Positions 1,961-30,966 of a DNA stretch of 32,676 nucleotides are shown here, piece by piece. The translations under genes were made by a program, and so were the position numbers. Below the pieces are notes generated by a model. It was not told the origin of the DNA, ran no database searches, and saw only the letters and a program-made list of their open reading frames with translations. The stretch is from Raillietiella orientalis. Lineage: Eukaryota. The stretch is taken from the NCBI GenBank assembly GCA_036172245.1, contig JAYWIR010000197.1, positions 1 to 32,676 on the forward strand, written 5' to 3'. The first letter of the stretch is position 1. Each line of letters begins with the position of its first letter.

Positions 1961-4125
1961 CTAACCGACGTAAAGCGTTCGATTGCGTCGACCAGGAGCT
2001 CCTTCTGGAGCTCTTGGAACGCTTGGGATTCCCGGCCGTCTTCCGTGCTTACCTGCGCTATTGCTGGCTCTTGGCTCTAATAAACATCTCTTTTAGCGGC
2101 CGGCACATGTGCGGCGTGCCGGTTCGGCGTGGCATAAGGCAGGGTGACAGTCTAAGCCCCTTGCTCTTCAGCATCTACTTCGAGCTGGTGCTGAGGGCAT
2201 ACAGGGAGTCTCTGGCAACCCTGCCAAGCTCGTGTCCCGGCACGCCCGGTCTACGCCGACGACCTTCTGCTCCTGCTCCCCGGGTCCACCCCGGCGTCGG
2301 CGCTCGGAGATTTCTTTGAGTTGCTGCGCCGCACGACGGGCCTCGAGGTGAACAGAGATAAATCTTCCATCGTTCCAACATCACCACTACTTTTAAACAA
2401 TACGGCGTGGGCCGGACGCCGGACTGGATCCGCTTGGGGATTCCCACGGGCAGGTGCTTCAAGTACCTTGGCGTTCCGTTGGAGGACTTCTGCGTTGCAG
2501 AAGCCTGGTCTGACCGTCTCCAAAAGGTGGAGTTGGCGATCGGCCCGTTCCAGAACGGCAAGTTTTACTTGCAGGAGGGGGCCGCGGTGTGGGACGCGTT
2601 CGCGGCCTCCCTCCTTCGCCCCTTACTTTTTGTTTGCCTCGCCCCTCCCATCATACAGAGACGGACCAAAGCCCTCTTGAGGACTGCCCTTTGGGGCACA
2701 GCGAGGTCGCGGGTCCGATTGAAAGACTTGTGCGCTCCACGAAGGGATGGTGGCTTGGGCCTCCTTACGTTGGAGCGCATCAAACTACAGACGACACTTC
2801 GAAAGTTATCCCTTGCGGCTAGCTTATGGATGACGCCATGGTGCGATCCGGCACGGCTCCTCGCCAGAAGAGCGACCGGTTGCGAAGGATTGTCCTCGAT
2901 TCTCGTGGCCTACCAGCGCAGCCTCTCCAGCTGTGACCCCGATTTGCGTTAGATGGTCGCGCTGATGTGAGAGAATATTTGGATCTCCTGCCTTCCCGCG
3001 AACTGCACTGCCTGGCTTCAGGAGTCAGCTTCCGCGTGGGCTAAGATCAACGGCACGAGCAAAGCGGAATACAACTGCCTACGACGAGGACCGTACGCTC
3101 GACAGGCGCTGCAGGAGATTATCAACACGCCCCGGAAGTTTCTGTGGGCCTCTTTCAGTCCCCTTGCCCCCGTTCTGTCCTCCCTAAAAAACACTAGGAG
3201 CAGCAACGAGCTGGCATCGTGGGAAGTGTCCTGCTTCATCCGAGGCAGGAAAAAACCTTTAAAGGCGTGGACGACTCGGGAGCTCACGGACGCTGCCACC
3301 CCGAGCGTCCCGCCTGACGGACTTGCGCGCTGGGTAGAGCTGCTCGCAATACCTTCGGAGGAGGTGAAGTGGCCCTTAGCGTGTTGAGATTGCGGCACAC
3401 TATCGTTGAAGTGGCAGGAGACGGCGTTGCTATTTCTGCACTGGAGACTGTTAAGCAGAGCACGCCTGTCTCACTGGACACTGGAGAATGTGGATGCCCG
3501 CTGTGTCGAGTGCGGAGAAAGAGAAACCTTCCCACATCTCACCCTCGAGTGTGTCGTCCTGGATGGACTCTGGAGTCGAATCGCCCCAATCCTCCATCTT
3601 CCATTAGGCGACCCTAAGGAAATTTACCGTCGCCTCTTTCTGCGTGACGGCCTGCGCCCCGCTGCGTCTCTAGCAGTCCTCTGCTGCGTGCGCGGCATTG
3701 TGCAAAGGTGGCACGCCAGAAGAAGAGGCCCAAGATGCAGGGACGTCATCCACTGGACGACGATCTCTTTAGAGACGGCGGCAAGGTGGCGTCTACCTTT
3801 CACAATAAAAACCGAACTTGACTGCATCCTCAAGAGGATGCGGAGGACCGTCCCAGGCGCCCAGTGATCCCTTCCCTGCCTCATCCCTCTCCCCATATAA
3901 CTGTTTTCCTCCCCGTTATCTCCCTTTTTGTTTGTTATTTTTCTAGTTTTCCCTTCCCATGCGCCTCGGGAATGGACCTAACCGGTCTATGCACCGGCAA
4001 CCGACACGTCGAGCAAGGTGGGAGAACCCAGTGTTTCTTCACAGATAACATCTTTTAAAAGACTTTATTATCTAATTTTTGTAAAAAATTAGAATAATAA
4101 ATGCCCCGGCATATCCGGGTGAAAA
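1961..4125 (+). mobile_element. LINE copy C: 5'-truncated, RT to 3' end
   Basis: Starts at KAFDCVDQ and ends with AATAAATGCCCCGGCATATCCGGGTGAAAA. Possible 9-bp TSD ACGTCGGCT at 1952-1960 and 4126-4134. Confidence 0.85.
1972..3867 (+). pseudogene. ORF2 remnant (RT motifs, thumb, CCHC finger)
   Basis: GIRQGDSLSPLLF, YADD near 2253, FKYLGVP, GGLGL and CVECGERETFPHLTLEC, with several stops and a frameshift. Confidence 0.9.
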
Positions 4126-7744: not shown

Positions 7745-10251
7745 CGCTGCACGCAGAATCCCCGACGGAGAATATTCTCTCTGAGATACTCCTGTCTCAG
7801 GATGCTCGTGTTGTCGGCGAGGAGGAACGCAAACGTCTCAACAAGCCCTTCACGGCGGATGAATTTTCGTCCGCCATCGCTAGGCTGAAGAGACGAAAGG
7901 CGTTAAGCGAGGATGGGCTCCCTGCAGAGTTCCATCAGTGCTTTGCAGTGGAGCTCATTCCCTTGATGCTGAGACTCGCGACGCTGATAAGTGAATCCGG
8001 GAATGTCCCGGATTCCTTCCGCTCTGCGAAAATGCGTCTCCTGCCAAAAGGCGGAGACTTGCTCCGACTTAACAACTGGCGTCCGATCACCTTGGTGAAC
8101 TCGGACGTCAAGTTATTTTCCAAGCTGTGGGTCGCGCGGTTAGGAAGTATCGCGGAATCTGTGGTGAGCCCGGAACAAACCTACGCGGTTCCGGGACGAT
8201 CCATGGAGGCGAACATCCTTTTCGCGCGTACATGGATGCAGCTGCAGGAAGTTGTGGCGCAGAAAAGCCAGGCTGCTGCGAAAGTCACTGCCGCAGGCAA
8301 GAAGAACAGGCGCCGACGGCAGGAGGGAACGCCAGGTGCCTTGGCGGTCGCGGTCGATCTCCACAAGGCGTACAACTGAGTAATCCAGAAGTTGCTTTTG
8401 GAGATTATGGAACGCCTTGGGTTCCCGGCGCAACTCCTGCTGTATTTGCGCGCGTGCTGGCGCCACGCGCTAACCTGCATCACTTTCAGCGGCTGCCGCG
8501 TGTATGGTATTCCCATGCGTAGGGGCATCCGACAGAGCGACAGCTTAAGCCCGTTGCCCTTCAGCATCTACTTTGAGTTCGTGCTTAGAGCATACAGGCT
8601 GACGCTGTCTCACTTGCCAAGCTCCTGCCCGGGAACGCCTGCCGTGGCCGCCTACGCTGATGACCTGCTTCTTCTGCTCCCCATGTCCACCCCGGCGTCC
8701 AGTGTCGAGGATTTCTTCGACCTGATTCGTCGGGGAGCGGGCGTGAGCGTGAACAGAGAGAAGAGCGTGGTCGTTCCTGTGGGTACGTCGTGGGAGGGGC
8801 AGTCCGACTGGATCCGCCTCGAGATCCCCACGGGCGGGTACTTTAAGTACCTTGGCGTTCCGTTGGGCGCTTTCGGCGCAGCCGAAGCGTGGGCGGACTG
8901 TCTTCAGAAAGCAGAGTTGGCCATCAGCCCGTTCTTTAACGGCAAGTTTACCTCGCAGGAACGGGCGACTATTTGGAACACCTTTGTGGTCCCCCTCCTC
9001 CGTCCCCTGTTTTTTGTTTTAAACCGCCCCTATGCGGCAAAACAGCGGGCAAAACGCCTGCTCAGGAACGCTCTCTGGGGACCTGCGAGATCCAGGATCG
9101 GCCTTAAAGATTTGTTAGCTCCGCGTCGGGATGCTGGTTTGGGTATCCTGACAATGGAGCGAATCGGACTGGAGGTGCAGTTCCGACTGCTGGCACTGTG
9201 TGTCCAGCTATGGACATCCCTCCTGTGTGTGCCAGCCTGCATTCTCCTGCGGAGATGCGCCGGCAGCGGAGGATTTCTCTCGCTTTTGCCGGGCACTCAA
9301 TACAGGAAGCGGGGTTCCAGGTTTCCATTGCGGCATTTGACCGCACTTCTGGAAGCTCACTAGTGGATCTCCTGCCGACCAATGTACTTTGAATCTTGGC
9401 GGTAGGAGTCTGTTGCATCCTAAGCAAAGTTCCAAGGAATACGCCCTGAAGATCTTCGCCCCCTGCGCCAATTTTTTCCACGATCCTTGGAAGAAGTACT
9501 GCAGGACGAGGTGAAGTTTTCTACCCTGGCTGCCACGCCTCTTGCCGCAGCGCTGTCTGCCCTCAGAGCAAGAAAGGACCGTTGCCAACAGGCGAGGTGG
9601 GAGGTTTTCTGCACGATAGCGGAAAAAACCACACTCCTTGGCGCCTGAAAGACGAGTGAGTTGGCGGACGCCGCCACTCCTCGTGTTACTGCAAAGGGAC
9701 TCCTCCGGTGGGCAGAAGAACTTGCTGTCACCCCCGAAGAACTTGTAGTCCCTCCACAGTGTATTGACAGTTCGCTGCTCCCGCTTGCTTGGGAACAAGC
9801 CGTGGTGCTTTTCGTTCACTGGGGTTTTCAGTGCAACGAGAGGTGGCATCTTGAATCCGGGGGACTTGCGTTTGCGAACTGCGTTCGGTGCGGATAGACG
9901 GAGTCGATTGTGCACCTACTTCTGGACTGCGGTGTCCTACAAGGACTGTGGCGTAGGCTAAAAACAGCACTATTGCATCCCGTGGACACCGCAAGAGACT
10001 TGCTGCGACGATTCTTCTCGCCGAGCGGGCTGTCCTTAAGCGCAAGGATGGCAACCATCGGTTGCATACGCGCGATGGTTTCTGTCCGCCAGGCGTTCGT
10101 AATCAACGGAAAGCACCAAGGGGTAATCAGCAAAGCATCCTTCTACATGGAAGCATCCGCTAGATGGCCTCATTTGACAGAGGAGACAAAAAGGAATCTC
10201 GCCGCAATACACCGCCGGTTTACACACGCTCAGCAGCGGCCAACCCAGTGA
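7745..10251 (+). pseudogene. ORF2 remnant (RT and CCHC finger)
   Basis: DGLPAEF, NWRPITLVNSDVK, AVDLHKAYN, AAYADDL, YFKYLG and CVRCG*TESIVHLLLDC, with multiple in-frame stops. Confidence 0.9.
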
Positions 10252-10907: not shown

Positions 10908-13253
10908 TTTAAACCCGGTACGCCGAAACGTTTATTATTTCAAATAAACTCATATAAACTGTGACTGGACCAGTAGTCCAGCCATGCCCTGGAAACATTC
11001 AGCCTGCAGGGCTGCCGGTGCACAGACCGACACGGTCGACCTCGGCAGCAGAAGGGAGAAGTAATCAAAGAAAAAGAAAACAAAGAAATAAACAAAACCT
11101 GGGAGGGAGCGGGAAGGGATCACTGTCTGCTTGGAGGTTCCATCATCCTCTGGAGGATGCCGGCAAGCTGTCGCTAAATGGGGGGTTCCAGATGAGGCCA
11201 TCGCGTCACCATCCTCAGGATACGGGCGGCGTAAACGGTGGCGTCCCTGTCGCTGGACCCTCCCGCCGCTTTGTTCCAGGCCACGACGATCCCGTGTAGG
11301 CAGCACAGGGCTGCAAGCGAGGCCGCCGGAGGCAGAGCATCACGGACGAAGAGGGGGCGCAAAGCGTCTCTAGGGTTGCCTCCGGGGATCCCCAGGGCTG
11401 CGGCAAAGCGTTCCCACAAGGGACGGAGGGCAACACATTCCACTAGCAGGTGGAAGAGGTATTAAATCTCCCCGCACCTGACACAATTGGGGTTGACACC
11501 CCCCCGCGTTTAGTAGTGTCGGCGGGCGTTGCAGGGGAGGCCCCAATGCAACACCAGGAGTGCCGACTGTTGTCACTTCATGGGAAAAGTGCGCAAGTCC
11601 ATGAGCACCGGGGGCCAATCGAGATGTTCCTTCGAATCATCCAGTAGCTCGACCCAGCGCAAGAGTCCGTGTGGGGTGGTCGTCGGGCTCGCAGCGTTGG
11701 TGAGCTGACCCGTTCTTCAATCCCCGATCTTCTTTGCCCTGCTGGCGACCTTGACAGTAACCTCCCATTGTGCCGCGACGTCGCTGCCCAGATATTCCCG
11801 TAGGGTAGGCAGTACCGCAGCAAGGGAGGTTCTTTGAGCCCACGCTCTCCTTCGGGGATTCTCGAAGATTTCTTGAAGCGTGCGGTGGGCGTGCGGCCCG
11901 AACAGAGCTATTCGCTCGTGTTGAGGGCTGTGCTCCTGAGTCATCGCCCACGTGCGGACGGTTTCCTGCAACCAGGCAGGACCGTTCGGGGGGCGTACGA
12001 GGATACGCTCCGAGCTGGTCTTCACGAGCTTGGCCGCCCTTCGAAGCTGATGTCCGCAGTGGCAGATGGAGCTTCGGAGTGCAAAGTAGGACGAGATTCC
12101 CGCATTGCCGGTGGCCCGCTCGACGAGAAGACGTGCAGTGAGGCACCAGGCGGTGCACCGATTTTTTGCCATAAAGGCAACACTCCGGTACTGGAGCTGA
12201 AGCTCCAGCCGCTTTAGCGTCAGGAGGCCAAGACCGCCGTCCCGACGCGAAGCGCACAAGTCCGCGACAAAAACTCGGGGCTTTCTCTGCCCCAAAGGGC
12301 TATCCTCAGGAGGTCCTCCGTCCTTTTCCTAGACTCCGCTGAGGGAAGGCAAACAAAAAGTAAGGCGCGAATTAGGGGTGCCGCAAACGCGTTCCACGCC
12401 GCTGCCCGTTCCTGCAGGTAGAACCTGCCGTCCTGGAACGGGCCGCTCGCCGCCTGAGCATTCTGAAGGCAGTCGTTCCACGCTTTCGCAGGGGAGTGGT
12501 CCCCCAACGGCACACCGAGGGACTTGAAGTACCTGACCGTGGGGATCCCCAAACGGACCCATACCTGCTGCTCTGTCCACGCCGCTCCGACTGGCATTAC
12601 GGAAGACTTCGCCCTGTTCACTATAAGTCCGGTTCCCCGATGCAGCTGGTCGAAGAACTCCTCGACCGCCTAAGCCGGGGTGGAAATAGAGAGCAGTAGC
12701 AGAAGATCGATCGCGTATGGCGAAGCCGCAGGCGTATTGAGACAATCGCACGGCAGGTGCGCCAGGGTCTCCCTGTACGCTCTCAGCACCAATTCGAAAT
12801 AGGCGCTAAAGAGCAGGGGGCTCAGGCTGTCTTCCTGCCGTATGCCGCGTCGCACCGGTACTCCGTGCACGGTTCGCCCGCTGAAAAGAACATTAATTAG
12901 CGCGTCGCGCCAGCTGGAGCGCAGGTAGGCCACCAAAAAGGCAGGGAAGCCCAAGCGTTCCAGAAGCTCCATCAGGAGATTCTGCTCGACGCTGTCGAAT
13001 GCTTTACGCAAGTCTACAGCGACCGCAAGGGCTCCCTTCCTTACCCGACCGTTTTGCCTCCCGCCAACGGACGCACCGGAATTCCGGCTGCTCAATAAGC
13101 CCCTTCCTGGTTGGAGCTCTAACCATGTGGTAGCGTGGAACAGGTTCGCCGCCATGCTCCGCTCGGGAACAGCATATGTCTGTTCCGGGCTGATGAAGAT
13201 GTTGGCAAACCGTCCCAGACGTTCTGCCCACATCTTGGCTATCAACTTGGCGT
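10908..13253 (-). mobile_element. LINE copy F, 3' part (RT from DAKL to 3' end)
   Basis: Minus-strand 3' motif AATAAACGTTTCGGCGTACCGGGTTTAAA at 10936-10908 and ORF2 stop at 11120-11122. Decayed RT motifs AVDLRKAFD, YAID and FKSLG. Interrupted at 13253. Confidence 0.85.
13239..13253 (+). repeat. Left target-site duplication CTATCAACTTGGCGT
   Basis: An identical 15-mer lies at 18397-18411. The pair flanks the 5' and 3' termini of copy L exactly. Confidence 0.92.
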
Positions 13254-15044: not shown

Positions 15045-18000
15045 GGCTCACCTGATAGCGGGAGATTTTAATCTCCGCCTGCTATCAGGTGAGCCACACG
15101 CACAGGAACGAACGGCTAACGAGTTGTGCGCCGCCATGCGCTCGCGCAACTTGTTAGGGGATCTTTCGGAAATGGTCAGCAGCATCCACAACGTCTTCCT
15201 GGAAGTCGACCTGTGTTCACGGGTCGGCAAACGGGGGAAAGTTGCGTCAGAGCTGTCTGACCATTTCCGGTTGATATTCGAGGTGTGCCCGCGCGACAAG
15301 GGCCCCCCATCCAGGGCGTGGCGCCTGCCTGAGGACTGGACGCGACTCTCAGGTGCGAAGGAACACCTTCGCGAATTCCTGAGAGGCGTCACCCTCCGCA
15401 ATCTCAATGATTGGGACCTTTTTAAGGCCTCGGTCCGCGAGTTTTGCGAGGAGTTCCCCTTGCACCTCCTGCCCCGGGGATTTGGGGAGGGCATCCGTAA
15501 CGAACGAGCGTACTTGTATGCCCGTCGTTACGCGAGGACCTCCAATGTCCGTCGCCTGGCAGAGTACCGAGCCGGGGCCGAACGTCAAGCCTGGCAATCC
15601 GGATCGGACAGCTTGCTAAACGACCAGGGCCGGGAGCACTCGGCTCCGGCTAGAATACGGCACCTCGTGCGGCGTTTTTATTTCTCCCTTTACGCCAGGG
15701 CGCCCCGGACCAAGATGCCTCTCGGCGCTTGCTTCCGAACGGTGCCCCGGCAATAGGGGAGGAGGACAAGGAAAGCCTCGACAAGCCTTTAACCACCGGC
15801 GAAATTATCGCCGGTATCAAAAGGCTCAAGAGGCGGAAAGCACCTGGGGAGGACGGCCTGCCTGCGGAGTTTTTTCAATGCTTCGCGGCAGAGTTGGCAC
15901 CCCTGGTGCTTGAGTTGACAAGGCTGAACCGAGATAAAGGCGATGTACCCGCCTCGTTTCGGTCAGCCAGAGTGAGGCTCCTTCCGAAAGGAGGAGACCT
16001 CAGGAAACTCAGCAACTGGCGTCCGATCACAATTGTGAACACGGACGCCAAGCTGATCGCCGGACTGTGGGCTTCGCGTCTGGGGAAGGTGGCCAATTCT
16101 ATAATTAGCCCGGAGCAGACTTACGCTGTTCCCGGACGAAGTATGGAGGCCAACCTCTTCTTCGCGAGCACATGGTTTCATGTGCAGAGTAGTCAATAAA
16201 AAAAAGAGGGAAGGATTGGCGCCCCGCTTTGGAGGCGTCAGCCGGGCAAGGACAGGTCTCCCAGGTGGGGAAGGGAGCCCTAGCGATCGCAGTCGATCTG
16301 CACAAAGCGTTTGACTGCGTGGACCAGGATCTCCTGCTTGAGCTCCTGGGACGCATGGGCTTCCATCCCTATCTACTGACCTACCTGCGCTCTTGCTGGC
16401 GCAGCGCCCTGATCAATATCTCTTTCAGAGGTCAAATGGCGTACGGCGTGCCGGTACGGCGGGGCATACGTCAGGGCGACAGCCTCAGTCCCCTGCTCTT
16501 TAGCACCTACTTTAAGTTGGTGCTGAGAGCGTACAGGGTGACTTTGGCCCCCTTGCCGAGCTCGTGCCCCGGCACGCCCGCCGTAGCAGCATACGCCGAC
16601 GATCTTTTGCTTCTGTTGCCGATGTCCACCCCGGAGAAGGCGGTCGGGGATTTCTTCGATCTGCTTAGCCGCCGGACCGGACTTACGGTGAACAGGGCGA
16701 AGTCGACGGTGGTTCCAGTCGGTGCGGCGTGGGCTGGGCAGCAGGACTGGGTCTGCTTGGGGATCCCCACGGCGAGGTGCTTGAAGTACCTTGGTGTGCC
16801 GTTGGGGGACTACTCCCCTGCGGAAGCGTGGTCTGTCTCCCTCCAAAAAGTGGAAACGGCGATCGGCCCGTTCTTATAAGACAAGTTTCTCCTTCCGGAA
16901 CGGGCCGCGGTATGGAACGCGTTCGCGGGTTTTATCCTCCGCCCCCTGCTTTTTGTTTGCCCCGTCCCCAGAGAGTTGAAAAAACGGACGAAGGAGCTCC
17001 TGAGAATTGACCTTCTGGGAAGTGGGAGGCCCCGACTGCCGTTGAAGGACTTGTGTGCTCCACGTCGGGATGGCGGTCTCTGCCGCTTGACGATAGAGCG
17101 AGTAGAGATTCAGCTGCGGTGGCGAACCCTCGCCATCGCAGCAATGTTATGGAGCACCCCTTGGTGCGTTCCGGCCCGACTCCTTGCCAGCCGTGTATCC
17201 GGAACGGAGGGTCTCGCGTCCTATCTTCTGTGCCGTGGCAGGAAGATCAAGAGATGCGGACTTCTCCTGGGACGCATGGCAACTCTGGCTAAGGAAAACG
17301 GCTGGATGGTATGCAGCCCCGCCAACTCCTCCGCATGGCTGGAGGAGACAGCTGGCACGTGGGCGAAGATAAAACAGAAGCACGGAGAGATGTGGAACTG
17401 CCTGCGACGCGGCGTTTATTCCCGCTGCACTCTGCGGAAGATACTCCAGTGTCCCTCGAGAAGCACGTGAGCGGAGACAACCCCCCTACATACGGCGATG
17501 CTTTTCCTGAGGAGGGCGCTCTCCAGCAGCCGCAAGCCTAGATGGCAAGTCTCCTGCTGTATCGCAGGCAAGAAGAAGCTGATGAGCGGCTGGTCCATGA
17601 GGGAACTGGCAAACGCCACGACCCGAAGTGTCCTTTCGCGTGGATTAGTGAAATGGGGCGAGCTGCTCGGCATCCAGCCGGATGACCTGAAGTGGCCCCC
17701 GGTATTAATTGGTTCTAGGATCCTCCCCCTGAAGTGGCAGGATTCGGCGCTTCTGTTGTTGCATTGGGGTCTACCCTGCAACGCACGCCGCCACCACTGG
17801 ACCAAAGGTCGTGTAGATCCTACCTGCATCAGGCGTGGGGAACGGGAAACCCTACCCCACCTCCTTGTAGATGGTGCTGCCCTCCGACACCTGTGGGAAC
17901 GTTTTCGTGCCTCCCTACGGATCCAGGAGGGCAGCCAGCCCAGAGACGTTTTTCGGCTTCTGTTCGTGCAAAATGCCCTGCGTCCAGCCGCTGCCCTGGC

Positions 18001-18396: not shown

Positions 18397-18411
18397 CTAT
18401 CAACTTGGCGT
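18397..18411 (+). repeat. Right target-site duplication CTATCAACTTGGCGT
   Basis: Identical to 13239-13253. Confidence 0.92.
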
Positions 18412-18987: not shown

Positions 18988-19074
18988 GCGGACGTGTTTT
19001 TCCTGAGCTCCCGAGCGAGTCGACAGGAAGCGGCTTTTTCTGTGTTTTGTTGTGTGGAACATCGTTGGTGTCCG

Positions 19075-20832
19075 ATGGCAGCGATGCCTGAGGACACCAC
19101 GAAAAAGGTAAGTGTTAGGGAGGCTTACGCACTTCCACAGCCTGCAGAATCAGGGGTGTCCGCCTCGGAATCATCCCCGGCAACGCCGAGGACGTGGAGC
19201 GCCAAGGTGTCCGCGCTCGGCGCGGAAAACTAGGCAGAGCAAGCGGCCTACAGGGCCTCCGGATATAAACCATCTCTGGTTTATAAGGTAGGACCCCTGT
19301 TTGATAGTCGCACCGCCCGGGCATTTAGTAGGGCACTGCAGGATTCCCCTGTAAGAGAAGAGGATCTTGACGGCCTTTCCGTACTCAGCGGGGGGCAGCG
19401 CGTGGAGGTCGTCTGCAAACACGTAGCCTTAGCACAGCACCTCATTAACACCCCGCTGAATGTGGATGGCCGGAAGATCCTGCCGGTTAGCATATACCGC
19501 TCCGTAGTGGTCCATCTAACCGGCATTACGAACCGCATGACGCGATCTGCGGTGAGTAATGAACTCAGTAAGTACGGTGAGATACACGCGTTGTGGCCAA
19601 AGCCTACCATTTTCGAAGCTTTTAATAGCCATTTCGGAGGCCAAGCTGCAGCGCGTGTAACGGTTAATGAGAGCAGTGGCTTGCCCTACAAACTGGAGGT
19701 CGCAAAGGAATCCGTCGACCTCTGGTACGTGAGGGAACCCCGCTATTGTAGCTACTGCGATGCAGTAGGGCACTTGCGCAAGCGGTCCCCGAATATCGAG
19801 TGCCACTTGTGCGGGGTTAAGGGACACCTTCGTCGTGTGTGCCTTAAAAGCTTCACCCCGGTGTCACCTGCTGCCAAAAAGGCACAGGCAACAAAAGGAA
19901 AAAAGGTCGAAAGAACTTATCGCGAAACTGGCCGGCCCCAGCCGCCATCTCCTGTTCCTCACACCCAGACGTCGGAGGAAAAACCCGCTGAAGACGCGGG
20001 AGAGGAAGAAGGATGGAAGCTGGTAAAGGCCAGAAAAGAAAAAGAAAAAGTTCTCCCCGTGGAACCCGCGATAGCGAAGAGAGAAAAGAGCGCGAAACCG
20101 AATAAACCCGGTCCGCGCTTGAAAACTCTTCGCGAGTGCACGGTGGCACTCGAACGGATTGCCGTCCCCGAGGCTGCCACCCAGGGCGATGAGCCTCCCC
20201 TCGCCGTTTCCGCAGCGCCCGAGGTTCGCGACGACGAACCCTCTGTTTGCACAGAGGGTGAGCCGCGCGAAACGCGCGCCGAAAGCGAGGACGCCGCGTT
20301 CGCGCAGGCGGCGGAGGAGCTCGCGGTCACGCTGGCCGAGCGTGAGAACCCCTCACGCAAGGCCTTGCAAAGGCCGGCTCCGCCGAAGAAGGCCCCCGCA
20401 GGTGAGTGCGACCTGGGGGCCGGAAGTGCATCCTCCTCGTCGGAGGGACCCCCCCGGAAGACGGAAGGCAAGTCCCAAAAGCCGAGGAGGCGCCTCTCCT
20501 CCACGAGCGAGGAGGAGAAGCAGGAACCCGACGGCAGCGTGGGAATCCCGGAGGAGGAAATCCCACGCGCGGAAGTCGTCGAGCAGGCCACCCCCATGGA
20601 AGAGGGAGAGCAGAAGGGCGAAGTCCTCCTTGCCGGCGCGGACCCTGTACAGCCCACCCGTATGGAGGAGGGCCAACAGGTAGGCGCGACCCCACCGGAG
20701 GGTGACCCGCCCGACGCGCCGTCACAGATAAAGCAGGGGGACCAGGTGCTCGAGGCACCTGTCCCTTCTGCCCCAACTAGCGTCCCGCCTTAACAGGTGG
20801 CGCACGCCGCAGAGCCGATTTCCCAAAAATAA
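19075..20832 (+). pseudogene. ORF1 of copy M
   Basis: A single frame with stops at 19231 and 20791. Knuckles CSYCDAVGHLRKRS (decayed) and CHLCGVKGHLRRVC. The homologous stop (ISQK*) is at 20830-20832. Confidence 0.88.
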
Positions 20833-22541
20833 CACGTGGGCTCGCCTGTCGCCGTCGAATCCTCGTGGCCAGTTGGAACGTCAACGGGCTGCGCGACGAC
20901 GGCAACAGACGAGATACGGCCGACACCCTGCGTGAGTTCGACCTGGCCCTGCTGCAGGAGATCCACGTGATCACCTCGGCAGACGTCCAGGAGATCGAGG
21001 CGATCGCGGGGGGTCGACTGTATTGGCGATGCGGCGCCCGCAACACCTGCGGGGTCGCGTTCTTCGTCAAGCCGGCCATCGACGCTGCCGTGAAGGGCGT
21101 ACGCTTCGATAACGACGGTCGGGTCGGTCAGCTGATTCTCAGCTGGTCCGACTCGATCGAATTGATCGTCACGAACGTGTACGCCCCAAGGGGGAAAGGG
21201 GGATACAGCGACCGTACCAGGTTGCTGAACACCCTGAAGCGCGACTGGATGGCCGATACGAACGTGCGGAAGGCACACCTGATAGCTGGGGACTTTAATC
21301 TCCGTCTGCTGTCAGGTGAGCCCGAAGCACAAAAACGCACGGCCAACGAGTTTTGCGCTGCCATGCGAACGCGCAACTTGTTGGCGGACGCGGAGGGAAT
21401 GGACCGCAGCATCGACCACTTCTTCCTGGATGTCGACCAATGCTCGCGGGTCGGCAAACGGGGAAAAGTTGCGTCGACGCTGTCGGACCATTCCAGGTTA
21501 ATCGCCGAGGTATGCCCGCGCGACAAAGGACCCACGGCCAGGGCGTGGCGGTTGCCTGGGGAGTGGACGCACCTCTCAGGTTCGAAGGAACACCTTCGCG
21601 AATTCCTCAGAGGCGTCACCCTCCGCAGTCTCAAAGGTTGGGACCTCTTCAAGGCCTCGGTCCGCGAGTTCTGCGAGGAGATCCCCCTGCACCGTCTGCC
21701 CCTTGGATTTGGGGAGGAAGCTCGGAGCCATAGGGCCTACCTCCAAGCCCGCCGGTACGAGAGGACCCCCAAAGTCCGTCGCCTGGCCGATTATCGAGGC
21801 GGGGCCGAGCGCCAAGCCTGGCAATTGGGGTCGGCCAGCATGCTCGACGACCAGGGCGGGGAGCGATCGGCCCCACCTGCGATCAGGCACCTCTTGCGCC
21901 CTTACTATTCCTCGCTTTACGCTAGGGCACGCCCTGAGCGGGACGCATCGCGACTTCTGCTTCCGGACGGAGCCCCGGCAATAGGGGAGGAGGAAAGGAT
22001 GAGCTTCGACGAGCCTTATTCTACCGGAGAAATTCTCGCCGGTATTAAAAGGCTCAAGATACGTAAGGCGCCAGGGGAGGACGGCCTGCCTGCGGAATTT
22101 TTTCGATGCTTTGCGACAGAGCTGGCCCCCCTGGTGCTCCAGTTGACCGGGCTGATCCGAGACGAAGGCGACGTTCCCACCTCGTTTCGGTCAGCCCGTG
22201 TGAGGCTCCTCCCTGAGGGAGGAGACCTGAGATCCTTAGGCAAATGGCGTCCGATCACAATTGTGAATACGGACGCCAAGCTGGTCGCTGGACTGTGGAT
22301 CTCGTCTAGGACAGGTGGCAGACTCCATAATTAGCCCGGAGCAGACATACGCTGTTCCCGGGCGAAGTATGGATGCCAACCTGTTCTCCGCGAGCACATG
22401 GTTCCATGTGCAGAGCTGCCTAAATTAAACTGGAGAGAATTTTAACAACCCCACTTTGAAGCCGCCAGCTGGACTGAAAATGGACACCCGGGCTGAGAAG
22501 GGGGCCCTAGCGATCGCGGTCGATCTCCATAAGGCGGTCGA
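20832..22541 (+). pseudogene. ORF2 of copy M: complete APE endonuclease and RT N-terminal part
   Basis: SWNVNG, LLQE, GVAF, NVYAP, AGDFN, SIDH and LSDH, then KAPGEDG and WRPITIVNTDAK. Open to about 22300, then frameshifted. Confidence 0.92.
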
Positions 22542-24891
22542 TTTTCACCCGGATTTCGCCTTGGCGTTTATTGTAAAATAAACTTTTACAAAGACGTGCG
22601 GTGGCTGGACCATTGCTCCAGCCACGCACGAAGAAACACAGAGCCTGCCGGGTCACCGGTTTGCGGACCGGTACGGTCCACCACGGCAGCAGGGGAAAGG
22701 GGGAAAAACAAAAAACAAAACAAAAAAGAAAAGAAAAGTTGGGAGGGTAAGGGAAGGGATCACAGTTGCTGGTGGGGCCGTTGCATCCTTTGCAGGATCC
22801 CGACAAGCTCCTTCTGTATTCCTGCATCCAGGTGGCGCCATCGGGACGCCCTCCTCAGGAAGTGGGTGGCTGGCTGGATGGCAACCTGGTCGCGTTGTCC
22901 TCCCGTAGCCTTGCTGCAAGCGGTGACGATCCCGCGTAGGCAGCACAAAGCTGCTAACAAGGCCGCTGGCCGAAGGGCGTCGGCAACGAAGAGGGCTTTC
23001 AGTGCGTCCCTGGAGTTGCCGCAGGGGATTCCGATGGCCGCGGCTAAGCGAAAAAAAAGGGGCCGAAGGGCAACACAATCCACTAGCAGGTGGGGGAGGG
23101 ACTCCCGTTCCCCACACCTGACGCAATTGGGGTCAACCGCTCCCCAGGTACAGTGGTGTCGGCGGGCGTTGCAGGGAAGTCCCCAGTGCTGCAACAGGAG
23201 AGCCGACACCTGCCATTTCAAGGGGAGGGCGGAAGTGTTCATGAGCACCGGGGGCCACTTCAGATGTTCATTGGGAACATCGAGCAGCGCGCCCCAGCGC
23301 AGAAGTCCATTGGGAGGCGTACTCGGGGTCGCAGCGTCTGTTAACTGGCCCGTCTTCCACTCTCCTATGTTCTTCTCCTTTCCGGAGATTGTTACTGTAA
23401 CCAACCACTTCGCCGCAACGTCGCTGTCCAGATCTTCCATGAGGAAGGGCAGCGCAGCAGCGAGGGTGGTTCTTCCTGCCCACGCTCTCTTCTTAGGATC
23501 CTCCAGGATGTCGCGGAGCGTGCAACTTCTGTAACCCCCAAACAGGAACCTTCGCTCCTGTTGGGAGCGTTGCATTCCGAACTGTCCCCACGTTCGAACG
23601 GTTTCCTGCAACCAGGCACTACCGTTCAACGGGAGACAGGTGAGCAATCCTGGATTTTTCCGATACAGCGCAGCCACCCTCCGTAGCTGGAGTCAGCATC
23701 GGTTGACGCGGCGACGGAGTGCAAGAAACGACGTCAGTCCCGTGTTGCCGGTGATTTGCTGGAGAAGGAGACGTGCAGGGACGAACCAACAGGTGCACCA
23801 GAACTCTGGAACGAGCGCCGACAAGCGGAACTGGAGCTGAAGCTCCAGCCGCTCCAGCGTCAGGAGGCCCAGACCACCATGCCGACGAGGATCGCACATG
23901 TTCTTTAAGCGGACTTGGGCCCTCCTGTTGCCCCAAAGGGCGATACGGAGGAGGTCCTTTGTCCGCTTTTTAATCCTCTCTGTGGGGGGGCAAACAAAAA
24001 GCAGGGGGCGGAGGAGAGGAGCCGCGAACGTGTTCCAAATTGCGGCCCGTTCAGGCAGGAAAAAGCTGCCGCCTCGGAACGGGCCGATCGCCGTGTCTAC
24101 TTTTTGAATGCAGCCGGACCACGCTTTCGCAGGGGAGTAGTCCCCCAACGACACACCAAGGTACTTGAAGTACCTCACCGTGGGGATCCCCAAACGGACC
24201 CAGTCCTGCTGCCGTGCCCACGCCGCACCAACTGGCATCACGGACGACTTCGCCGTGTTCACCGTAAGTCCGATTCCCCGATGCAGCAGTTCGAAGAACT
24301 GCTCGACCGCCTCAGCCGGGGTGGACATAAGGAGCAGCAGCAGAAGGTCGTCCGCGTACGCTGAAACGGCAGGCGTACCGGCACATTCGTGCGGTAGGTG
24401 CGCAGAGTTTCCCTGTACGCTCTCAGTACGAACTCAAAGTAGGTACTGAAGAGCAAGGGGCTCAGGCTCTAACTTCCGTATCCCAAGTCGCACCGGCACG
24501 CCGCGCACGGTTTGCCCGCTGAAAGTAACATTGATGAGCGCGTCGTGCCAGCAGGAGCGCAGATAGGTTACTAATGAGGCCGGGAAGCCCATGCGTTCCA
24601 GAAGCTCCAGAAGGAGATTCTGGCCGACGCAATCGAATGCTTTTCGCAAGTCGATTGCGACCGCAAGGGATCCCTCCCCCACCCGACCATCCAACCACTT
24701 GCCGGCGCACGCACCGGAATTCCGGCTGCGCACCAAGCTCCTTTCATGTTGGAGCTCTAGCCAGGTGGAAGCGTGGAACAGGTTCGCCTCCATGCTTCGC
24801 CCGGGAACAGCATATGTCTGTTCTGGGCTGACGAAGATGTTGGCAACACGTCCCAGACGCTCTGCCCAAACCTTAGCCGGCAACTTGGCGT
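22542..24891 (-). mobile_element. LINE copy E: RT (from DAKL) to 3' end
   Basis: 3' motif at 22542-22572 and ORF2 stop at 22760. AIDLRKAFD, SAYADDL, YFKYLG and CVRCGERESLPHLLVDC, frameshifted. Interrupted at 24891. Confidence 0.9.
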
Positions 24892-24979
24892 GCGGACGTG
24901 TTTTTGTAGCGCTCCTCCGCGCCTGGTGTAAAGCGTTTGGTTTCTTTTGTGTTTGTGTGTGGAGCATCTGCGGTGTCCA
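24892..24979 (+). promoter_or_regulatory. 5'UTR, putative internal promoter (representative of 5 copies)
   Basis: Conserved ACGTGTTT start, a CTCC motif, a TG-rich tract and GGTGTCCNATGGC. The promoter role is by analogy with other LINEs. Confidence 0.5.
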
Positions 24980-25060
24980 ATGGCAGAAATGCCTGAGGTC
25001 ACCGCAATGGATATAGGAGGGGGAGAGGCTTGCTCCTCTCATTTACCCACAGAGGTGGGG

Positions 25061-25276
25061 GCAAACGCCCCCACGGAGGCGACGGCAGCCGCACCCCTGA
25101 AAAAGGGGGCAACCGCCGCCTCGGAAGCGAGGGCAAAGTTCCCCTTGAAAAAGGGGGCAAAAGCCCCGCTAGAACAGGGTGCAACCGCCCCCTTGAAAAA
25201 GGGGACAACCGCAACCCTGGAAAAGGGCGCAACCGTCTGCTTGAAAAAGGGGGCACCTGCACCCTCGAATGCGTCT
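25061..25276 (+). repeat. ~9 x 24-bp coding tandem repeat (ATAPLKKG-like)
   Basis: Same periodic unit as 13423-13638. Confidence 0.8.
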
Positions 25277-26687
25277 TCCGCATCGCCGAAGACCTGGAGT
25301 TGAGAGGCTGCAGCCCCATCTCCTGCAGCCCTCGCCGAGCAGAAAGCCTACCTGGAGCAGGCATACAAGCCGTCCCTGATATACAAGGTAGGCAATCTGT
25401 TTGTCGGGAACACCGCTCGCAACTTCGAAAGGAAGTTGCTGCGGTTGAACGTAAAAGAGGAAGACTTGGAAGGTGTTTCCGTGTTGAGTGGTGGTCAGCG
25501 GGTGGAGCTGACTTGCAGAAATGCAATCCTTGCTCAACACCTCCTGAATACGCCAATCACACAAGAAGGCCGAAAGGTTTTCCCGGTAACGGAGGATCGC
25601 TCCGTGGTGACGCACCTCACGGGAGTCACCCTCCGCATGTCGAAAGCCGACGTGCAGGAGGAACTCGGAAAATACGGAACGGTTCACGCGCCATGGCCCA
25701 AGCCCAACGTCTTCCAGAGTTACGGAAGACGTTTAGTGGCATGGGTGGTGCGCGTGTAACCGTCTACGAAAACGGTGGGCTACCCCACAAACTAGACGTC
25801 GGCAACGAGACCGTCGACGTCTGGTACGTGGGCAAGCCCAAGTACTGTGGACACTGTGATGCCACAGGGCACCTGAAAAAGCGGTGCCCTCACATCCAGT
25901 GTTTCCACTGTAGAGAAAAGGGCCACCTCCGCAAAGTGTGCTCGAAGCGCGTACTTCCGGCTCCCGCTGCCTTGAAAAAGGCCAAAGGGAAACGCGCGGG
26001 GGCTACGGAAAAGCCTTCGAAGGCACCCGTGAGACGGAACCCACAGCCGGAGCTCGAGCCCGTGCAGCAAACGCCGGTCGTGGAATCTACCCAAGACGCT
26101 GAAAAGAGCGAAACCTAACAGAAGGCGAAGCCTGAAGCTAAGAAACCAAAGAAAAGTGAAGGATTGACAGCGGAACCCGCGACGTCTCCTTTAAATAGGA
26201 GACAACGCCGCGCGTTGATCCGCGAATGTTCGGTCGCTTTGGAGCGTGTGGAGGTACCCGAGACCGCCACCGGGAGAGCTATCCCCCGCGTCGACGCCGA
26301 CGATAACGCGATCACGGAAGGCGAACCCTCTGTGCAAACAGAGGGGGAACCGCGCGACGCGCTCGCCGCGATCGACGAGGCCGCATTCCAGCAGGCGGTG
26401 GAAGAGCTCGCGGCCGAACTCGCCGAACGTGAGAACGGCGCGCGAAAGGCCTTGCGAAAACCGGCCGCGACCAGGGCACCTCCGACAGGTGACCACGACC
26501 CGGATGCCGGAAGTGCGTCCTCTTCCACGAGGCGCCTCTGAAGAAGACTGGACGGAAGTCCAAGAATCCCAAGAGGCGCATCCCGACGAAGAGCGAGGGG
26601 GACGCACCGGCAGCCGACGGGGAAGCCGGCAGCGTGGGAACGGAGGGAGGAATTTTCCCACCCTCCGCCACCGAGCAGCCGGCCACC

Positions 26688-26925
26688 CCAATGAAGGAGG
26701 GGGAGCAGGTAGGGCATTGCCTCCCCCTTCCACCGGTGGAGCCTGCGGAGAAGATAGTCATGGAAGAGGGGGAGCAGACAGCTGAGAACCGCTCCCCCCT
26801 GCCGTCCATCGCAGTCGAGAAATCGGCCCACATGGAAGAGGGGAAGCAGGTGCGTGAAGCATGCTCCCTTCAACCGTTGCGTTCCGCCGAGGAATCGGCC
26901 CCCATGGAGGTGGGAGAACCGCTGG
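26688..26925 (+). repeat. 4 x ~72-bp degenerate repeat (PMEEGEQ) in the ORF1 C-terminus
   Basis: The ATG of the motif lies at 26691, 26760, 26832 and 26904. Confidence 0.7.
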
Positions 26926-26998
26926 GCGGTGCCCCCATGCCTCCATCCGTCCCGCCCGACCAGGTGGCGGGAGCCCCATTGTTGCTTTCCCAGGAGTA

Positions 26999-28709
26999 AC
27001 ACCTGGGCTCGCCTGTCGCCGTCGATTACGCGTGGCCTGCTGGAATGTGAACGGGCTGCGCGACGACGGCAACAGACGGGAAACGGCCGCCACCCTGCGT
27101 GACTTCGACCTGGCACTCCTGCAGGAGATCCACGTGATCACCGCGGAGAACGCCCAGGAGATCCAAAGGATCGCAGGGGGACGGTTGATGTGGCAATGCG
27201 GCACCCGATACACCTGCGGCGTCGCGTTTTTTATGAAGCCGGCAGTCGACGCAGCCATGAAGGGCGTGCGCTTCGACGAAGCCGGTCGTGTCGGCCAGCT
27301 GATTCTCAGGTGGTCCGACGCTATTGACCTCGTCGTAACAAATGTGTACGCTACGAGCGGTCCTACCAGTTATCAGGAACGTAAGGCGTTCCTGGAAACC
27401 CTGAAGCGCGACTGGCTGGCGGAAGCGAACGTGCGCGTGGCTCACCTGACAGCGGGAGACTTTAATCTCCGCCTGCTATCAGGTGAGCCACACGCACAGG
27501 AACGGACGGCTAACGAGTTGTGCGCCGCCATGCGCACGCTCAACTTGTTAGGGGATCTTTCGGAAATGGTCAGCAGCATCGACCACGTCTTCCTGGATGT
27601 CGACCTGTGTTCACGGGTCGGCAAACAAGGGAAAGTTGCGTTGGAGCTGTCTGACCATTTCCGGTTGATATTCGAGGTGTACCCGCGCGACAAGGGCCCC
27701 CCATCCAGGGCGTGGCGTCTGCCTGGGGACTGGACGCGACTCTCAGGTGCGAAGGAACACCTACGCGAATTCCTGAGAGGCGACACCCTCCGCAGTCTCA
27801 AAGATTGGGACCTCTTCAAGGCCTCGGACCGCGAGTTCTGCAAGAAGTTCCCCCTGCACCGTCTGCCCCCCAGATTTGAGGAGGGGGCTCGGAAACATAG
27901 GGCCTATTTACAGGCTTGCCGGTACAAGAGGACCCCCAATGTCCGTCGCCTGGCAGACTCCGAGCCAGGGTCGAACGTCAAGGCTGGCAATCCGGATCGG
28001 CCAGCTTGCTGGACGACCAGGGCCGGGAGCAATCGGCTCCGGCTAGAATACGGCACCTCGTGCGGCGTTTTTATTCCTCCCTTTACGCCAGGGCACCCCC
28101 GGACCAAGATGACCCTCGGCGCTTGCTTCCGAACGATGCCCCGGCAATAGGGGAGGAGGAGAAGGAAAGCCTCGACGAGCCTTTTATTACCGGCGAAATT
28201 ATCGCCGGTATGAAAAGGCTCAAAAGGCGGAAAGCACCAGGGGAAAACGGCCTGCCTGCGGAGTTTTTTCAATGCTTCGCGGCAGAGTTGGCACCCCTGG
28301 TGCTTGAGTTGACAAGGCTGAACCGAGATAAAGGCGATGTAACCGCCTCGTTTCGGTCAGCCAGAGTGAGGCTCCTTCCGAAAGGAGGAGACCTCAGGAA
28401 ACTCAGCAACTGGCGTCCGATCACAATTGTGAACACGGACGCCAAGCTGATCGCCGGACTGTGAGCTTCGCGTCTGGGGAAGGTGGCCAATTCTATAATT
28501 AGCCCGGAGCAGACTTACGCTGTTCCCGGACGAAGCATGGAGGCCAAGCTCTTCTTCGCGAGCACATGGTTTCATGTGCAGAGTAGTCAAGAAAAGGAAG
28601 AGGGAAGGATTGGCAGCCCCGCTTTGGGGGCCTCAGCCGGGCAGGGACAGGACTCCCAGGTGGGGAAGGGAGCCCTAGCGATCGCAGTCGATCCGCATGA
28701 AGCGTTTGA
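26999..28709 (+). pseudogene. ORF2 of copy N: endonuclease and early RT
   Basis: CWNVNG, LLQE, NVYA, AGDFN, SIDH, LSDH, KAPGENG and NWRPITIVNTDAK. Frameshift near 27960 and TGA at 28462. Confidence 0.9.
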
Positions 28710-30966
28710 TTTTCACCCGGATTTCGCCGGGGCGTTTATTGTAAAATAAACATTTACAAAGAGGTGTGGTGGCTGGACCATTGCTCCAGCCACGCACGAA
28801 GAAACACAGAGCCTGCCGGGTCACCGGTTCGCAGACCGGTACGGTCCACCACGGCAGCAGGGGGAAGGGTGAAAAACAAAAAACAAAACAAAAAAGAAAA
28901 GAAAAGTTGGGAGGGTAATGGAAGGGATCACAGTTGCTGGTGGGGCCGTTGCATCCTTTGCTGGATGCCGGCAAGCTCCTTCTGTATTCCTGGATCCAGC
29001 TGGGGACATCGTGACGCCCTCCTCAGGAACTGGGAGGCTGGCTGAATGGCACCCTGGTCGCGTTGTCCTCCCGTAGCCTTGCTCCAAGCGGTGACGATCC
29101 CGCGTTGGCAGCACGAAGATGCTAACGAGGCCGCTGGCCGAAGGGCGTCGGCAACGAAGAGGGCTTTCAGTGCGTCCCTGGGGTTGCCGCAGGGGATACC
29201 GATGGCCGCGGCAAAGCGAAACCAAAGGGGCGGAAGGGCAACACAATCCACTAGCAGGTGGGGAAGGGACTCCCGTTCCCCATACCTGACGCAACTGGGG
29301 TCCACCGCTCCCCAGGTACAGTGGTGTCGGCGTGCGTTGTAGGGGAGTCCCCAGTGCTGCAACAGGAGAGCCGACTCCTGCCATTTCAAGGGGAGGGCTA
29401 AGGTGTTCATGAGCACCGGGGGCCACTTCAGATGTTCAATGGGAACATCGAGCAGCGCGCCCCAGCGCAGAAGTCCATTGGGAGGCGTACTCGGGGTCGC
29501 AGCGTCTGTTAACTGGCCCGTCTTCCACTCTCCTATCTTCTTCTCCTTTCCGGAGATTGTTACTGTAACCAACAACTTCGCCGCAACATCGCTGTCCAGA
29601 TCTTCCATGAGGAAGGGCAGCGCAGCAGCGAGGGGGGTTTTTCCTGCCCACGCTCTCTTCTTAGGATCCTCCAGGATCTCGCGGAGCGTGCAACTTTTGT
29701 AACCCCCAAACAGGAACCTTCTTTCCTGTTGGGAGCGTTGCATGCCGAACTGTCCCCACGTTCGAACGGTTTCCTGCAACCAGGAACTACCGTTAAACGG
29801 GCGACAGGTCAGCAATCCTGGGTTTTTACGATACAGCGCAGCCACCCTCCGTAGCTGGAGTCCGCATCGGTTGACGCGGAGACGGAGTGCAAGAAACGAC
29901 GTCAGTCCCGTGTTGCCGGTGATTTGCTGGAGAAGGAGACGTGCAGGGACGAACCAACAGGTGCACCAGAACTCTGGAACGAGTGCCGACAAGCGGAACT
30001 GGAGCTGAAGCTCCCGCCGCTCCAGCGTCAGGAGGAGCAGACCACCATCCCGACGAGGAGCGCACAAGTCGTGGCGCGTTTTAAACCGCGGATTGTTCTG
30101 GCAAGTGAATGTTTCCTTCCAGGAACGTGCCGATCGCGTTCGCTACATTTTGGAGGCAGATCGACCACGCTTCCGCAGGGGAGTAGTCCCCCAACGGCAC
30201 ACCAAGGTACTCGAAGTACCTCACCGTGGAGATCCCCAAACGGACCCAGTGCTGCTGCCCTGCCCACGCCGCACCAACTGGCATCACGGACGACTTCGCC
30301 CTGTTCACCGTAAGTCCGGTTCCCCGATGCAGCAGGTCGAAGAACTCCTCGACTGCCGCAGCCGGGGTGGACATAGGGAGCAGCAGCAGAAGGTCGTCCG
30401 CGTATGCTGAAACGGCCAGAGTACCGGCACAGTCGGGCGGCAGGTGCGCCAGAGTTCCCCTGTACGCTCTCAGTACCAACTCAAAGTAGGTACTGAAGAG
30501 CAAGGAACTCCCTGCCGGATCCCACGCCGCACCGGCACGCCGTGCACGGTCTGCACACTGAAAGTAACATTGATGAGAGCGTCGCGCCAGCAGGAGCGCA
30601 GATAGGCCAGTAATGAGGCCGGTAAGTTCAAGCGTTCCAGAAGCTCTAGAAGGAGATTCTGGTCGACGCAATCGAATGTTTTTCGCAAGTCGATTGCGAC
30701 CGCAAGGTCTCCCTCCCCCACCCGACCATCCAACCCCCTTATGGCGCAAGCACCGGAATTCCGGCTGCGCACGAAGCTCCTTTCATGTTGGAGCTCTAGC
30801 CAGGTGGAAGCGTGGAACAATTTTGCCTCCATGGTTCGCCCGGGAACAGCATATGTCTGTTCCGAGCTAATGAAGATGTTGGCAACCCGTTCCAGACGCT
30901 CTGCCCAAACCTTACCCACCAACTTGGCGTCCGCATTCACTATTGCGATGGGACGCCAGTTGTTGA
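28710..30966 (-). mobile_element. LINE copy G: RT (from INNWRP) to 3' end (same subfamily as E)
   Basis: 3' motif at 28710-28740 and ORF2 stop at 28928. SAYADDL is present, with an internal deletion near 30070. Reads uninterrupted through NADAKL. Confidence 0.9.

Follow-up and report, generated by a model that had tools for sequence, protein, structure and literature searches.

Two long interspersed nuclear elements (LINEs) interrupt two other, older LINEs at one and the same nucleotide of the reverse transcriptase (RT) coding sequence, both in antisense orientation, in a 32,676-bp stretch of Raillietiella orientalis DNA (contig JAYWIR010000197.1; this whole stretch is referred to as the window). 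The inserts, designated E and G, entered the hosts M and N, respectively, and their interpretation as independent, site-specific antisense insertions is well supported within the window. We consider it likely that E and G represent a LINE subfamily with target specificity for a conserved sequence in the RT motif of its sister LINEs. The window, with 58% G+C, is a recursively nested pile of L1-like LINEs in which no non-LINE gene was seen. Copies are designated by a letter or by c followed by a number, the shared insertion site is called hotspot 2, a second recurrent site is called hotspot 1, and coordinates are collected in Table 1.

At the M junction (22541/22542), the host sequence ...GCCCTAGCGATCGCGGTCGATCTCCATAAGGCGGTCGA (longer context ...GCGGTCGA, host end GGTCGA) is joined directly to TTTTCACCCGG, and at the N junction (28709/28710) the host sequence ...GCCCTAGCGATCGCAGTCGATCCGCATGAAGCGTTTGA (longer context ...GCGTTTGA, host end GTTTGA) is joined to the same TTTTCACCCGG. 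The copy L is uninterrupted at 16314/16315, where ...AAAGCGTTTGA is followed by CTGCGTGGACC (longer context ...GCGTTTGA followed by CTGCGTGG) and the sequence continues through the RT. The homologous base is common to both junctions and to this empty site. The host reading frame at hotspot 2 is LAIAVDLHKA(F/V)D, and the break falls after the GA of the last Asp codon in both hosts; the Asp codon of N belongs to EAFD and that of M to KAVD, and if the latter was GAT the M junction could be one base further right. Read on the minus strand, the insert presents a complete LINE 3' end (...AATAAACGCC..GGCGAAATCCGGGTGAAAA). In the original prediction, 22542 and 28710 had been given as the coordinates of two antisense insertions at one base, directly after the GA of the Asp codon in KAxD. 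Each of these positions is indeed the first base of an insert, in-frame translation placed the breaks as described, and the two junctions together with the identity step described below bore out two separate insertions at a shared base. L had correctly been named as the empty site, and the predicted destruction of the host RT agrees with the location of hotspot 2 in the RT motif LAIAVDLHKAFDC, where insertion truncates open reading frame (ORF) 2 of the host.

M carries ORF1 at 19234-20793 and ORF2 from 20781, with an apurinic-type endonuclease (APE) domain and the N-terminal part of the RT. Its remnant of the hotspot-2 inverted repeat comprises the 5' arm CGCGGTCGA at 22515-22523, the loop and then TCGA, the first 4 nt of the 3' arm, and the first-strand nick in M would be located after 22541. 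N, with ORF1 from ~25340 and ORF2 from 26948, retains the 5' arm CGCAGTCGA at 28683-28691. The 3' end of E is intact (...CCGGGTGAAAA in the sense direction) and E also contains an intact hotspot-2 hairpin of its own; it breaks off at hotspot 1, where N starts with its 5' end. G is broken at hotspot 1 by H, and a run of A leaves the G/H border uncertain by ~3 nt.

Comparison of the two composite loci, column by column, showed that the host sides of M and N match at 1028 of 1264 bases (81.3%, with 71% to 90% in each 100-nt bin), whereas the insert sides of E and G match at 1288 of 1357 (94.9%, with 92% to 99% in each bin). The step in identity coincides with the junction to the base (Fisher p = 2.9e-28): identity is 71% over the final 100 nt of host and 95% over the initial 100 nt of insert. 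The description of M and N as having unrelated sequence just upstream of the site was therefore wrong, and both are diverged homologues. N shares 92.8% identity with the uninterrupted L but 81.3% with M, which indicates that the two hosts come from different subfamilies. Between the 14-mer GCCCTAGCGATCGC that they share and the junction, M and N differ at 7 of 24 bases, so that a crossover in GCCCTAGCGATCGC could not have shifted the junction onto a second host; the competing scenario set out in the original prediction, one insertion followed by recombination in this stretch, fails on these differences and on the step from 81% to 95% at the junction. Examination of each border gave the nesting order M<-E<-N<-G<-H, and since the 5' end of N sits in E at hotspot 1, the elements are nested recursively rather than repeated in tandem. 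E and G entered their hosts in two separate events, and a single insertion followed by duplication or recombination is effectively excluded.

The hotspot-2 region is present in nine copies, of which two are interrupted exactly there, six are empty (L, c7252, c8335, A, E and G) and one, c1972, starts 11 nt upstream. c1972 (1972-4126, plus strand) begins with AAAGCGTTCGA followed by TTGCG and directly adjoins b, a full-length antisense element, at the 5' end of the latter; the proximal half of c1972 lies beyond the window. This arrangement is probably a third hotspot-2 event of which the 5' side is visible, and its target-site duplication would measure 11 bp. When c1972 is counted, three of the nine copies are occupied, in three different host subfamilies. 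Both E/G-type 3' ends within the window are at hotspot 2. By our own arithmetic, which takes an element of ~5.6 kb and requires the same site and the same orientation, the chance of a shared site is ~1 in 11,000 per pair and ~0.0025 over the 28 pairs that can be formed from the eight visible 3' junctions.

The elements of the window are APE-type non-long-terminal-repeat retrotransposons with L1-like architecture. Mapping by tblastn, probed with pieces of both ORFs of M and of ORF2 of L, together with BLAST, revealed at least 14 L1-like LINE fragments of several subfamilies that are 70-95% alike. Pfam searches detected APE endonuclease, RT and zf-RVT domains on many broken ORFs of both strands. 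The N-terminal apurinic-type endonuclease of ORF2 was found in M (PF03372, E = 4.6e-12) and N (E = 2.9e-10), the RT (PF00078) exceeded its cutoff in five ORFs (E = 1.9e-17 in L), and the C-terminal zf-RVT (PF13966) was present in five ORFs, in one of them above cutoff. A candidate zinc knuckle in ORF1 gave a weak zf-CCHC_2 match (E = 0.0017; 18.6 bits, under the cutoff of 27).

All eight element ends examined share a conserved 3' end, AATAAA(C/T)GCCCCGGC.T..CCGGGTG, followed by a tail of 3-5 A; the 3' ends of A and c8335 are diverged versions of this shared architecture. The tails seen were GAAAA, GGCAAAA, GGCAA, GGAAA, TTTAAA and GATAAA. With so short a tail and an invariant stem region at the 3' end (CCCGG...CCGGG), the elements look like 'stringent' LINEs, which recognise their own 3' ends. 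As an observation in its own right, the small CCCGG/CCGGG stem at the element ends gives them the appearance of a 'stringent'-type end rather than of poly(A). The flank is another LINE copy at all seven of the 3' junctions that could be assigned, out of eight visible; the flank of the c7252 3' end (~4908-5113) matched no element.

The palindrome TGGCGTCCG(16 nt)CGGACGCCA marks hotspot 1; it codes for WRP...TDAK, and its stem is conserved without compensatory change (alignment judged by eye). The 5' junctions of L in A and of N in E fall at the same base (...GGCGT followed by GC...), and H entered G in the sense direction, at the mirror-image position of the opposite strand. A and E are 75.6% identical and the 5' parts of L and N are 81.1% identical, so that the case for two independent events is weaker here than at hotspot 2. 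L splits A into two halves and is flanked on each side by the target-site duplication ACGCCAAGTTGATAG. The LINE family thus makes target-site duplications, of 15 bp at hotspot 1, which indicates that it inserts by target-primed reverse transcription with staggered nicks; the duplication was seen for L, the corresponding flanks of E and G being outside the window. We also considered a second nick placed symmetrically at the palindrome and dropped it, since the 15-bp duplication does not agree with it.

The three 5' junctions at 18980-18990, 13246-13256 and 24884-24894 (M in A, L in A and N in E) all read CTTGGCG(A/T) followed by GC(G/T)(G/A)ACGTG. The host side is always TTGGCG plus one base, and the start of the element resembles the hotspot-1 arm (GCGGACG). 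This shared sequence may reflect microhomology or a preferred second-strand nick.

If E and G form a target-specific subfamily, as we consider likely, their apurinic-type endonuclease would recognise a sequence that every functional sister LINE keeps because it encodes the catalytic RT motif. The enzyme would nick the host sense strand after T(C/T)GA in ...AAGCG(T/G)T(T/C)GA, that is, after the GA of the KAxD Asp codon, and the freed 3'-OH would prime reverse transcription from the fixed 3' end of the element RNA (...CCGGGTGAAAA). A second nick ~11-15 bp upstream would then yield a short target-site duplication. The short tail and the 3' stem region would permit read-through transcripts to pair with the target, as those of R1-type elements can, and such pairing of a read-through 3' end may assist the insertion. 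We infer that the endonuclease would be the source of specificity, and the same qualification extends to the position of the second nick and to any role of the inverted repeat.

Several points weigh against this explanation. The recurrence comprises two exact events and one partial event, all in one 32.7-kb window, and both the endonuclease-coding halves of E and G and the distal halves of M and N, with their target-site duplications, fall outside it. Site specificity is not uniform in the family, as three of the eight visible 3' junctions are elsewhere (A in K, c1972 in d, and c7252, whose flank could not be matched), and H and c1972 are ~95% alike yet occupy different sites. A single nick motif for all eight junctions was tried and rejected, as T(T/C)GA fits ~5 of them, some with an offset, and fails three. 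It is formally possible that E and G were made alike by gene conversion, if the converted tract stopped precisely at the junction. Finally, the scans of viral and genome contigs, the metagenome matches listed and the protein searches gave no outside DNA on which recurrence could be judged.

In these searches, the DNA pattern GCCCTAGCGATCGCNGTCGAT gave no match in viral contigs and one match in genome contigs, in a Salinarimonas contig, which was taken as chance. A three-sequence alignment gave at least 593 pattern matches in metagenome contigs, and among those listed there was one distant relative, with 23% identity; true relatives may lie beyond the matches listed. Protein searches on the ORFs of the window gave only distant LINE relatives: two distant matches were obtained with M ORF2, none with the C-terminus of c7252, and one, with 57% identity over 132 amino acids, with the junction-spanning ORF of N, a search that revealed no further junction-bearing ORFs. 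The ESM Atlas gave only generic eukaryotic APE-LINE clusters. The public run X1 contained 13% of the sampled words and, on positions 10501-30500, 407 short contigs, mostly less than 90% alike, that is, a relative. Among the X1 matches listed, no loose end or joint was seen at 16314, 22541 or 28709, which is no evidence either way as 257 loose ends and 10 joints were outside that list.

The inverted repeat at hotspot 2 is real. It had been described as a covarying 9-bp stem in the uninterrupted copies, and to those named in the original prediction (L, E, G and A) we added the intact copies c7252 and c8335. Nine Watson-Crick pairs are formed in E and G; the other two copies originally listed fall short of this, by one G.T pair in L and by one mismatch in A. 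An inner helix of 3 bp lies within the 14-nt loop. In the six-copy alignment, 90.3% of the cells are paired vs 86.2% in shuffles, a value equalled by 9 of 500 shuffles, and the covariation score is equalled by 1 of 500 (six copies, about five lineages). The covariation itself amounts to two compensatory pairs (three cells), with double changes in 2 of 12 pairs and in two independent events. In E and G, GTC/GAC became ATC/GAT, and in A, GCA/TGC became GCT/AGC, where GCT is Ala and AGC is Ser replacing Cys; each event joins one synonymous change to one amino-acid change. The stem exceeds what protein sequence and codon usage would give in E/G and in A, not in L or c7252 (probabilities in Table 1); these four copies are related, so that their probabilities cannot simply be multiplied. 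Folding was no better than in shuffles in two of the six intact copies. Taken as a whole, these data are suggestive of some degree of selection on the stem. Perfect hairpins with a stem of at least 8 bp and a loop of 3-30 nt number 67 in the window vs 16.2 +/- 4.1 expected from 30 dinucleotide shuffles (maximum 27), a count that repeated copies inflate; stems of at least 9 bp number 27 vs 4.9 in shuffles.

These repeats bear on a different explanation, in which an inverted repeat, as a hairpin, a cruciform or single-stranded DNA, is itself recognised as the landing pad. A conserved inverted repeat includes, or comes within ~10 nt of, four distinct insertion sites, namely hotspot 2, hotspot 1 in both orientations, and the loop of the GDFN hairpin (16-bp stem; 10566-10600), inside which the 3' end of c8335 is joined to K. 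The two compensatory changes, the rarity of the covariation score among shuffles and the stems of E/G and A, unexpected given protein and codons, also favour targeting by structure, as does the mirror symmetry of sense and antisense insertions about the hotspot-1 palindrome. However, the nicks follow no common structural rule: at hotspot 2 the break is within the 3' arm, at hotspot 1 it is 8-9 nt beyond the arm, and at GDFN it falls in the loop. A half-site sequence on both strands explains the mirror symmetry equally well. The abundance of hairpins in the window makes proximity to one less surprising, three of the eight junctions are without a hairpin of stem >= 8 bp, and folding does not rise above shuffles in L, c7252 or c8335. 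We therefore regard structure-directed targeting as rather improbable and the covarying hairpin as a minority hypothesis for the cause of the insertions at hotspot 2; it is at least as likely that the hotspots are simply the most conserved coding sequences and hence the most reliable multicopy targets. An extended version, to which we give a similarly small chance, holds that the WRP..DAK, AVD..KAFDC and GDFN repeats are landing pads kept by the LINEs and that two lineages target one another reciprocally, guided by structure. E/G-type elements would hit the KAFD hairpin of M/N-type elements and N/L-type elements the WRP/DAK hairpin of A/E-type elements, giving the alternating nest M<-E<-N<-G, and differences of one base in the elements' own sites (GCA vs GCG before the hotspot-2 nick; CTG vs TTG at hotspot 1) might confer self-immunity. 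If this were true, reciprocal targeting between sister retrotransposons would build a self-assembling, centromere-like repeat block.

Explanations that dispense with recurrent targeting fare worse. That one ancestral insertion of E into M was duplicated to give N and G and then altered by recombination or gene conversion could account for two units ~6.2 kb apart in the same order and orientation, which BLAST joins in one block (20781-23898 and 26948-30066, 86.7% identity); we consider it very unlikely in view of the change in identity exactly at the junction, the differences beyond the shared 14-mer, the greater closeness of N to L than to M, and the insertion of N into E, which makes a nest and not a tandem repeat. 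The position of the site within an inverted repeat would suit an endonuclease-independent capture, in which the hairpin stalls replication, or a host nuclease cuts, and LINE complementary DNA (cDNA) patches the lesion. From L1 it is known that base-identical junctions, complete 3' ends and target-site duplications characterise insertion that depends on an endonuclease and is target-primed. The two junctions agree to the base, the inserts show no 3' truncation and the neighbouring hotspot carries a clean 15-bp duplication, all of which makes capture highly improbable. False joins in the assembly of a region that consists entirely of repeats are scarcely credible either. The short contigs of a relative in X1 neither confirm nor deny the joins, but false joins arise inside shared sequence, whereas here a host RT codon meets the terminal A-tail of an element, and it does so twice, with inserts that differ by 5% and hosts that differ by 19%. 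The explanation that we favour therefore remains a target-specific subfamily that hits the RT motif of its relatives.

Target-specific LINEs of the APE type are well known: R1 inserts in 28S ribosomal DNA (rDNA), Tx1-group L1 elements in multicopy genes or repeats, and TRAS and SART in telomeric repeats. Sequence-specific LINEs have reportedly been screened across genomes by Kojima and Fujiwara in 2004. Like these elements, the LINEs of the window carry an APE endonuclease and a defined 3' end without long poly(A), and independent copies occupy the same nucleotide of a conserved multicopy target. Unlike them, they have as their target the RT-coding sequence of sister LINEs, which is hit in antisense so that each insertion disables a relative, and other members of the cluster use other sites; target specificity of the endonuclease is here presumed. 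DIRS-1 of Dictyostelium prefers its own copies as insertion target and forms dense, centromere-associated clusters, and to our knowledge no base-precise site in a catalytic motif has been described for it. The window resembles DIRS-1 in self-directed insertion that builds clusters of one retroelement family, but DIRS-1 is a tyrosine-recombinase retroelement, whereas the LINEs of the window use target-primed reverse transcription. By analogy, we propose that hotspot 2 may follow the same logic as R1 and R2 in ribosomal DNA. The R1Bm endonuclease cleaves its target specifically (PMC1919474).

The closest parallel for the nest as a whole is provided by the Zepp and ZeppL L1 LINEs of green algae (Coccomyxa/Chlorella, Chlamydomonas), which form nested clusters and 'target existing copies' (PMC8226300, PMC3446292). 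The Coccomyxa clusters measure 1.5-42 kb with 61% GC (PMC3446292), and the window is likewise a cluster composed almost wholly of LINEs inserted in one another, of 32.7 kb and 58% GC. Zepp arrays are described as tandem and made mostly of 3' ends (PMC8226300); insertions in the window, unlike these, are mostly antisense and at fixed ORF2 bases. For Zepp and L1-1_CR, the tail given is (A)n (PMC3747384, Table 3); unlike Zepp, the elements of the window end in only 3-5 A after a fixed CCGGGTG, and thus do not have the poly(A) tail. Nothing at the level of the site was added on Zepp by PMC9940879 or by a 2025 bioRxiv preprint. Base-level target sites of Zepp were not found in the literature searched, which did not cover Higashiyama 1997 or Yamamoto 2003, and the same literature, again short of these original Zepp reports, contained no description of antisense targeting of the catalytic-motif codons of sister LINEs. 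What sets the window apart is the target, a block of catalytic-motif codons of sister LINEs; nested LINE clusters and target-specific LINEs were already known. In several green algae, nested LINE clusters have been proposed as the DNA of the centromeres, and the way in which new copies find old ones is described only generally in the literature consulted. If a LINE subfamily does target a fixed RT base of its relatives, the 'safe haven' logic of rDNA would extend to the catalytic motif of another transposon, and there would be a concrete mechanism both for cluster growth and for subfamilies disabling one another. The target would then be a defined sequence of 20-40 bp, directly testable by nicking and retrotransposition assays.

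Table 1. Elements, junctions and inverted repeats of the window. For hairpins, z compares the DNA fold with 200 shuffles (number of shuffles as good in brackets) and P is the probability of the stem given protein sequence and codon usage.
Feature	Position	Strand	Details
Host element M	18988..22541	+	5' end GCGGACGTGTTTTT; Exo_endo_phos match, tblastn map, sequence
Hotspot-2 inverted-repeat remnant in M	22515..22541	+	sequence
Insert E, antisense to M	22542..24891	-	carries zf-RVT and RT
Host element N	24892..28709	+	5' end 24892 (full-length, GCGGACGTGTTTTT), inside E
Insert G, antisense to N	28710..30966	-	3' end at 28710; own hairpin 30667-30698
H	from ~30967	-	inserted in G
Empty hotspot-2 site in L	16288..16319	+	CGCAGTCGA, 14-nt loop, TTGACTGCG
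c1972 start	1972..1982	+	AAAGCGTTCGA, the 11 nt directly before the hotspot-2 nick position
Element b	552-1971	-	ORF1 and family 5' motif GACGTGTTT
Eight element 3' ends	4126, 5114, 10565, 10908, 18396, 22542, 28710, ~30967		shared 3' architecture
Hotspot-1 palindrome	L 16016-16050; M 22244-22278; N 28410-28444; G 30924-30958		
Hotspot-1 junctions	13253/13254, 24891/24892, 18396/18397, ~30966/30967		
A, halves split by L (13254-18396)	10908-13253 and 18397-18987	-	15-bp duplication each side
15-bp target-site duplication ACGCCAAGTTGATAG	18397..18411 and 13239-13253	-	flanks L in A
E hairpin	24628-24659		9 Watson-Crick; z = -3.7 (1/200); P = 0.005 (E/G)
G hairpin	30667-30698		9 Watson-Crick; z = -2.4 (3/200); P = 0.005 (E/G)
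A hairpin	12990..13021	-	8 Watson-Crick, one A/G mismatch; z = -2.15 (6/200); P = 0.02
L hairpin	16288..16319	+	8 Watson-Crick, 1 G.T; -8.9 kcal/mol, z = -1.5 (21/200); P = 0.09
c7252 hairpin, weak	7211..7242	-	6 Watson-Crick, 2 G.T, 1 mismatch; z = -0.25 (81/200); P = 0.23
c8335 site, degenerate, no hairpin	8349..8380	+	z = +0.66 (146/200)

Some further features of the window were observed. The endonuclease motif LIAGDFN is spanned by a perfect inverted repeat, of 16 bp in L (15044-15096) and of 13 bp in N (27437-27491). L is without ~760 bp between ORF1 and this hairpin, and its identity to N is 81% upstream of the breakpoint vs 93% downstream, as if L were a recombinant produced by template switching at the LIAGDFN hairpin. 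Several of the hairpins of the window come back at equivalent positions of diverged copies, such as GCCCGTTC...GAACGGGC at 8926, 12403, 16863 and 24042. The elements c7252 (minus strand) and c8335 (plus strand) are joined head to head at 7741-7747, at nearly the same ORF2 position, and their shared part is ~72% identical by BLAST. The 5' untranslated region of b contains, at 1740-1850, imperfect tandem repeats of ~35 bp (GGCGACGTTG..CCGCC.CCTGGCACTCCA...). At the 5' end of the same element (1952-1971, minus strand) there are ~12 extra bases that repeat the first bases of b in inverted form (ACGTCGG TTAGAG CCGACGT) and look like a snap-back as cDNA synthesis finishes.

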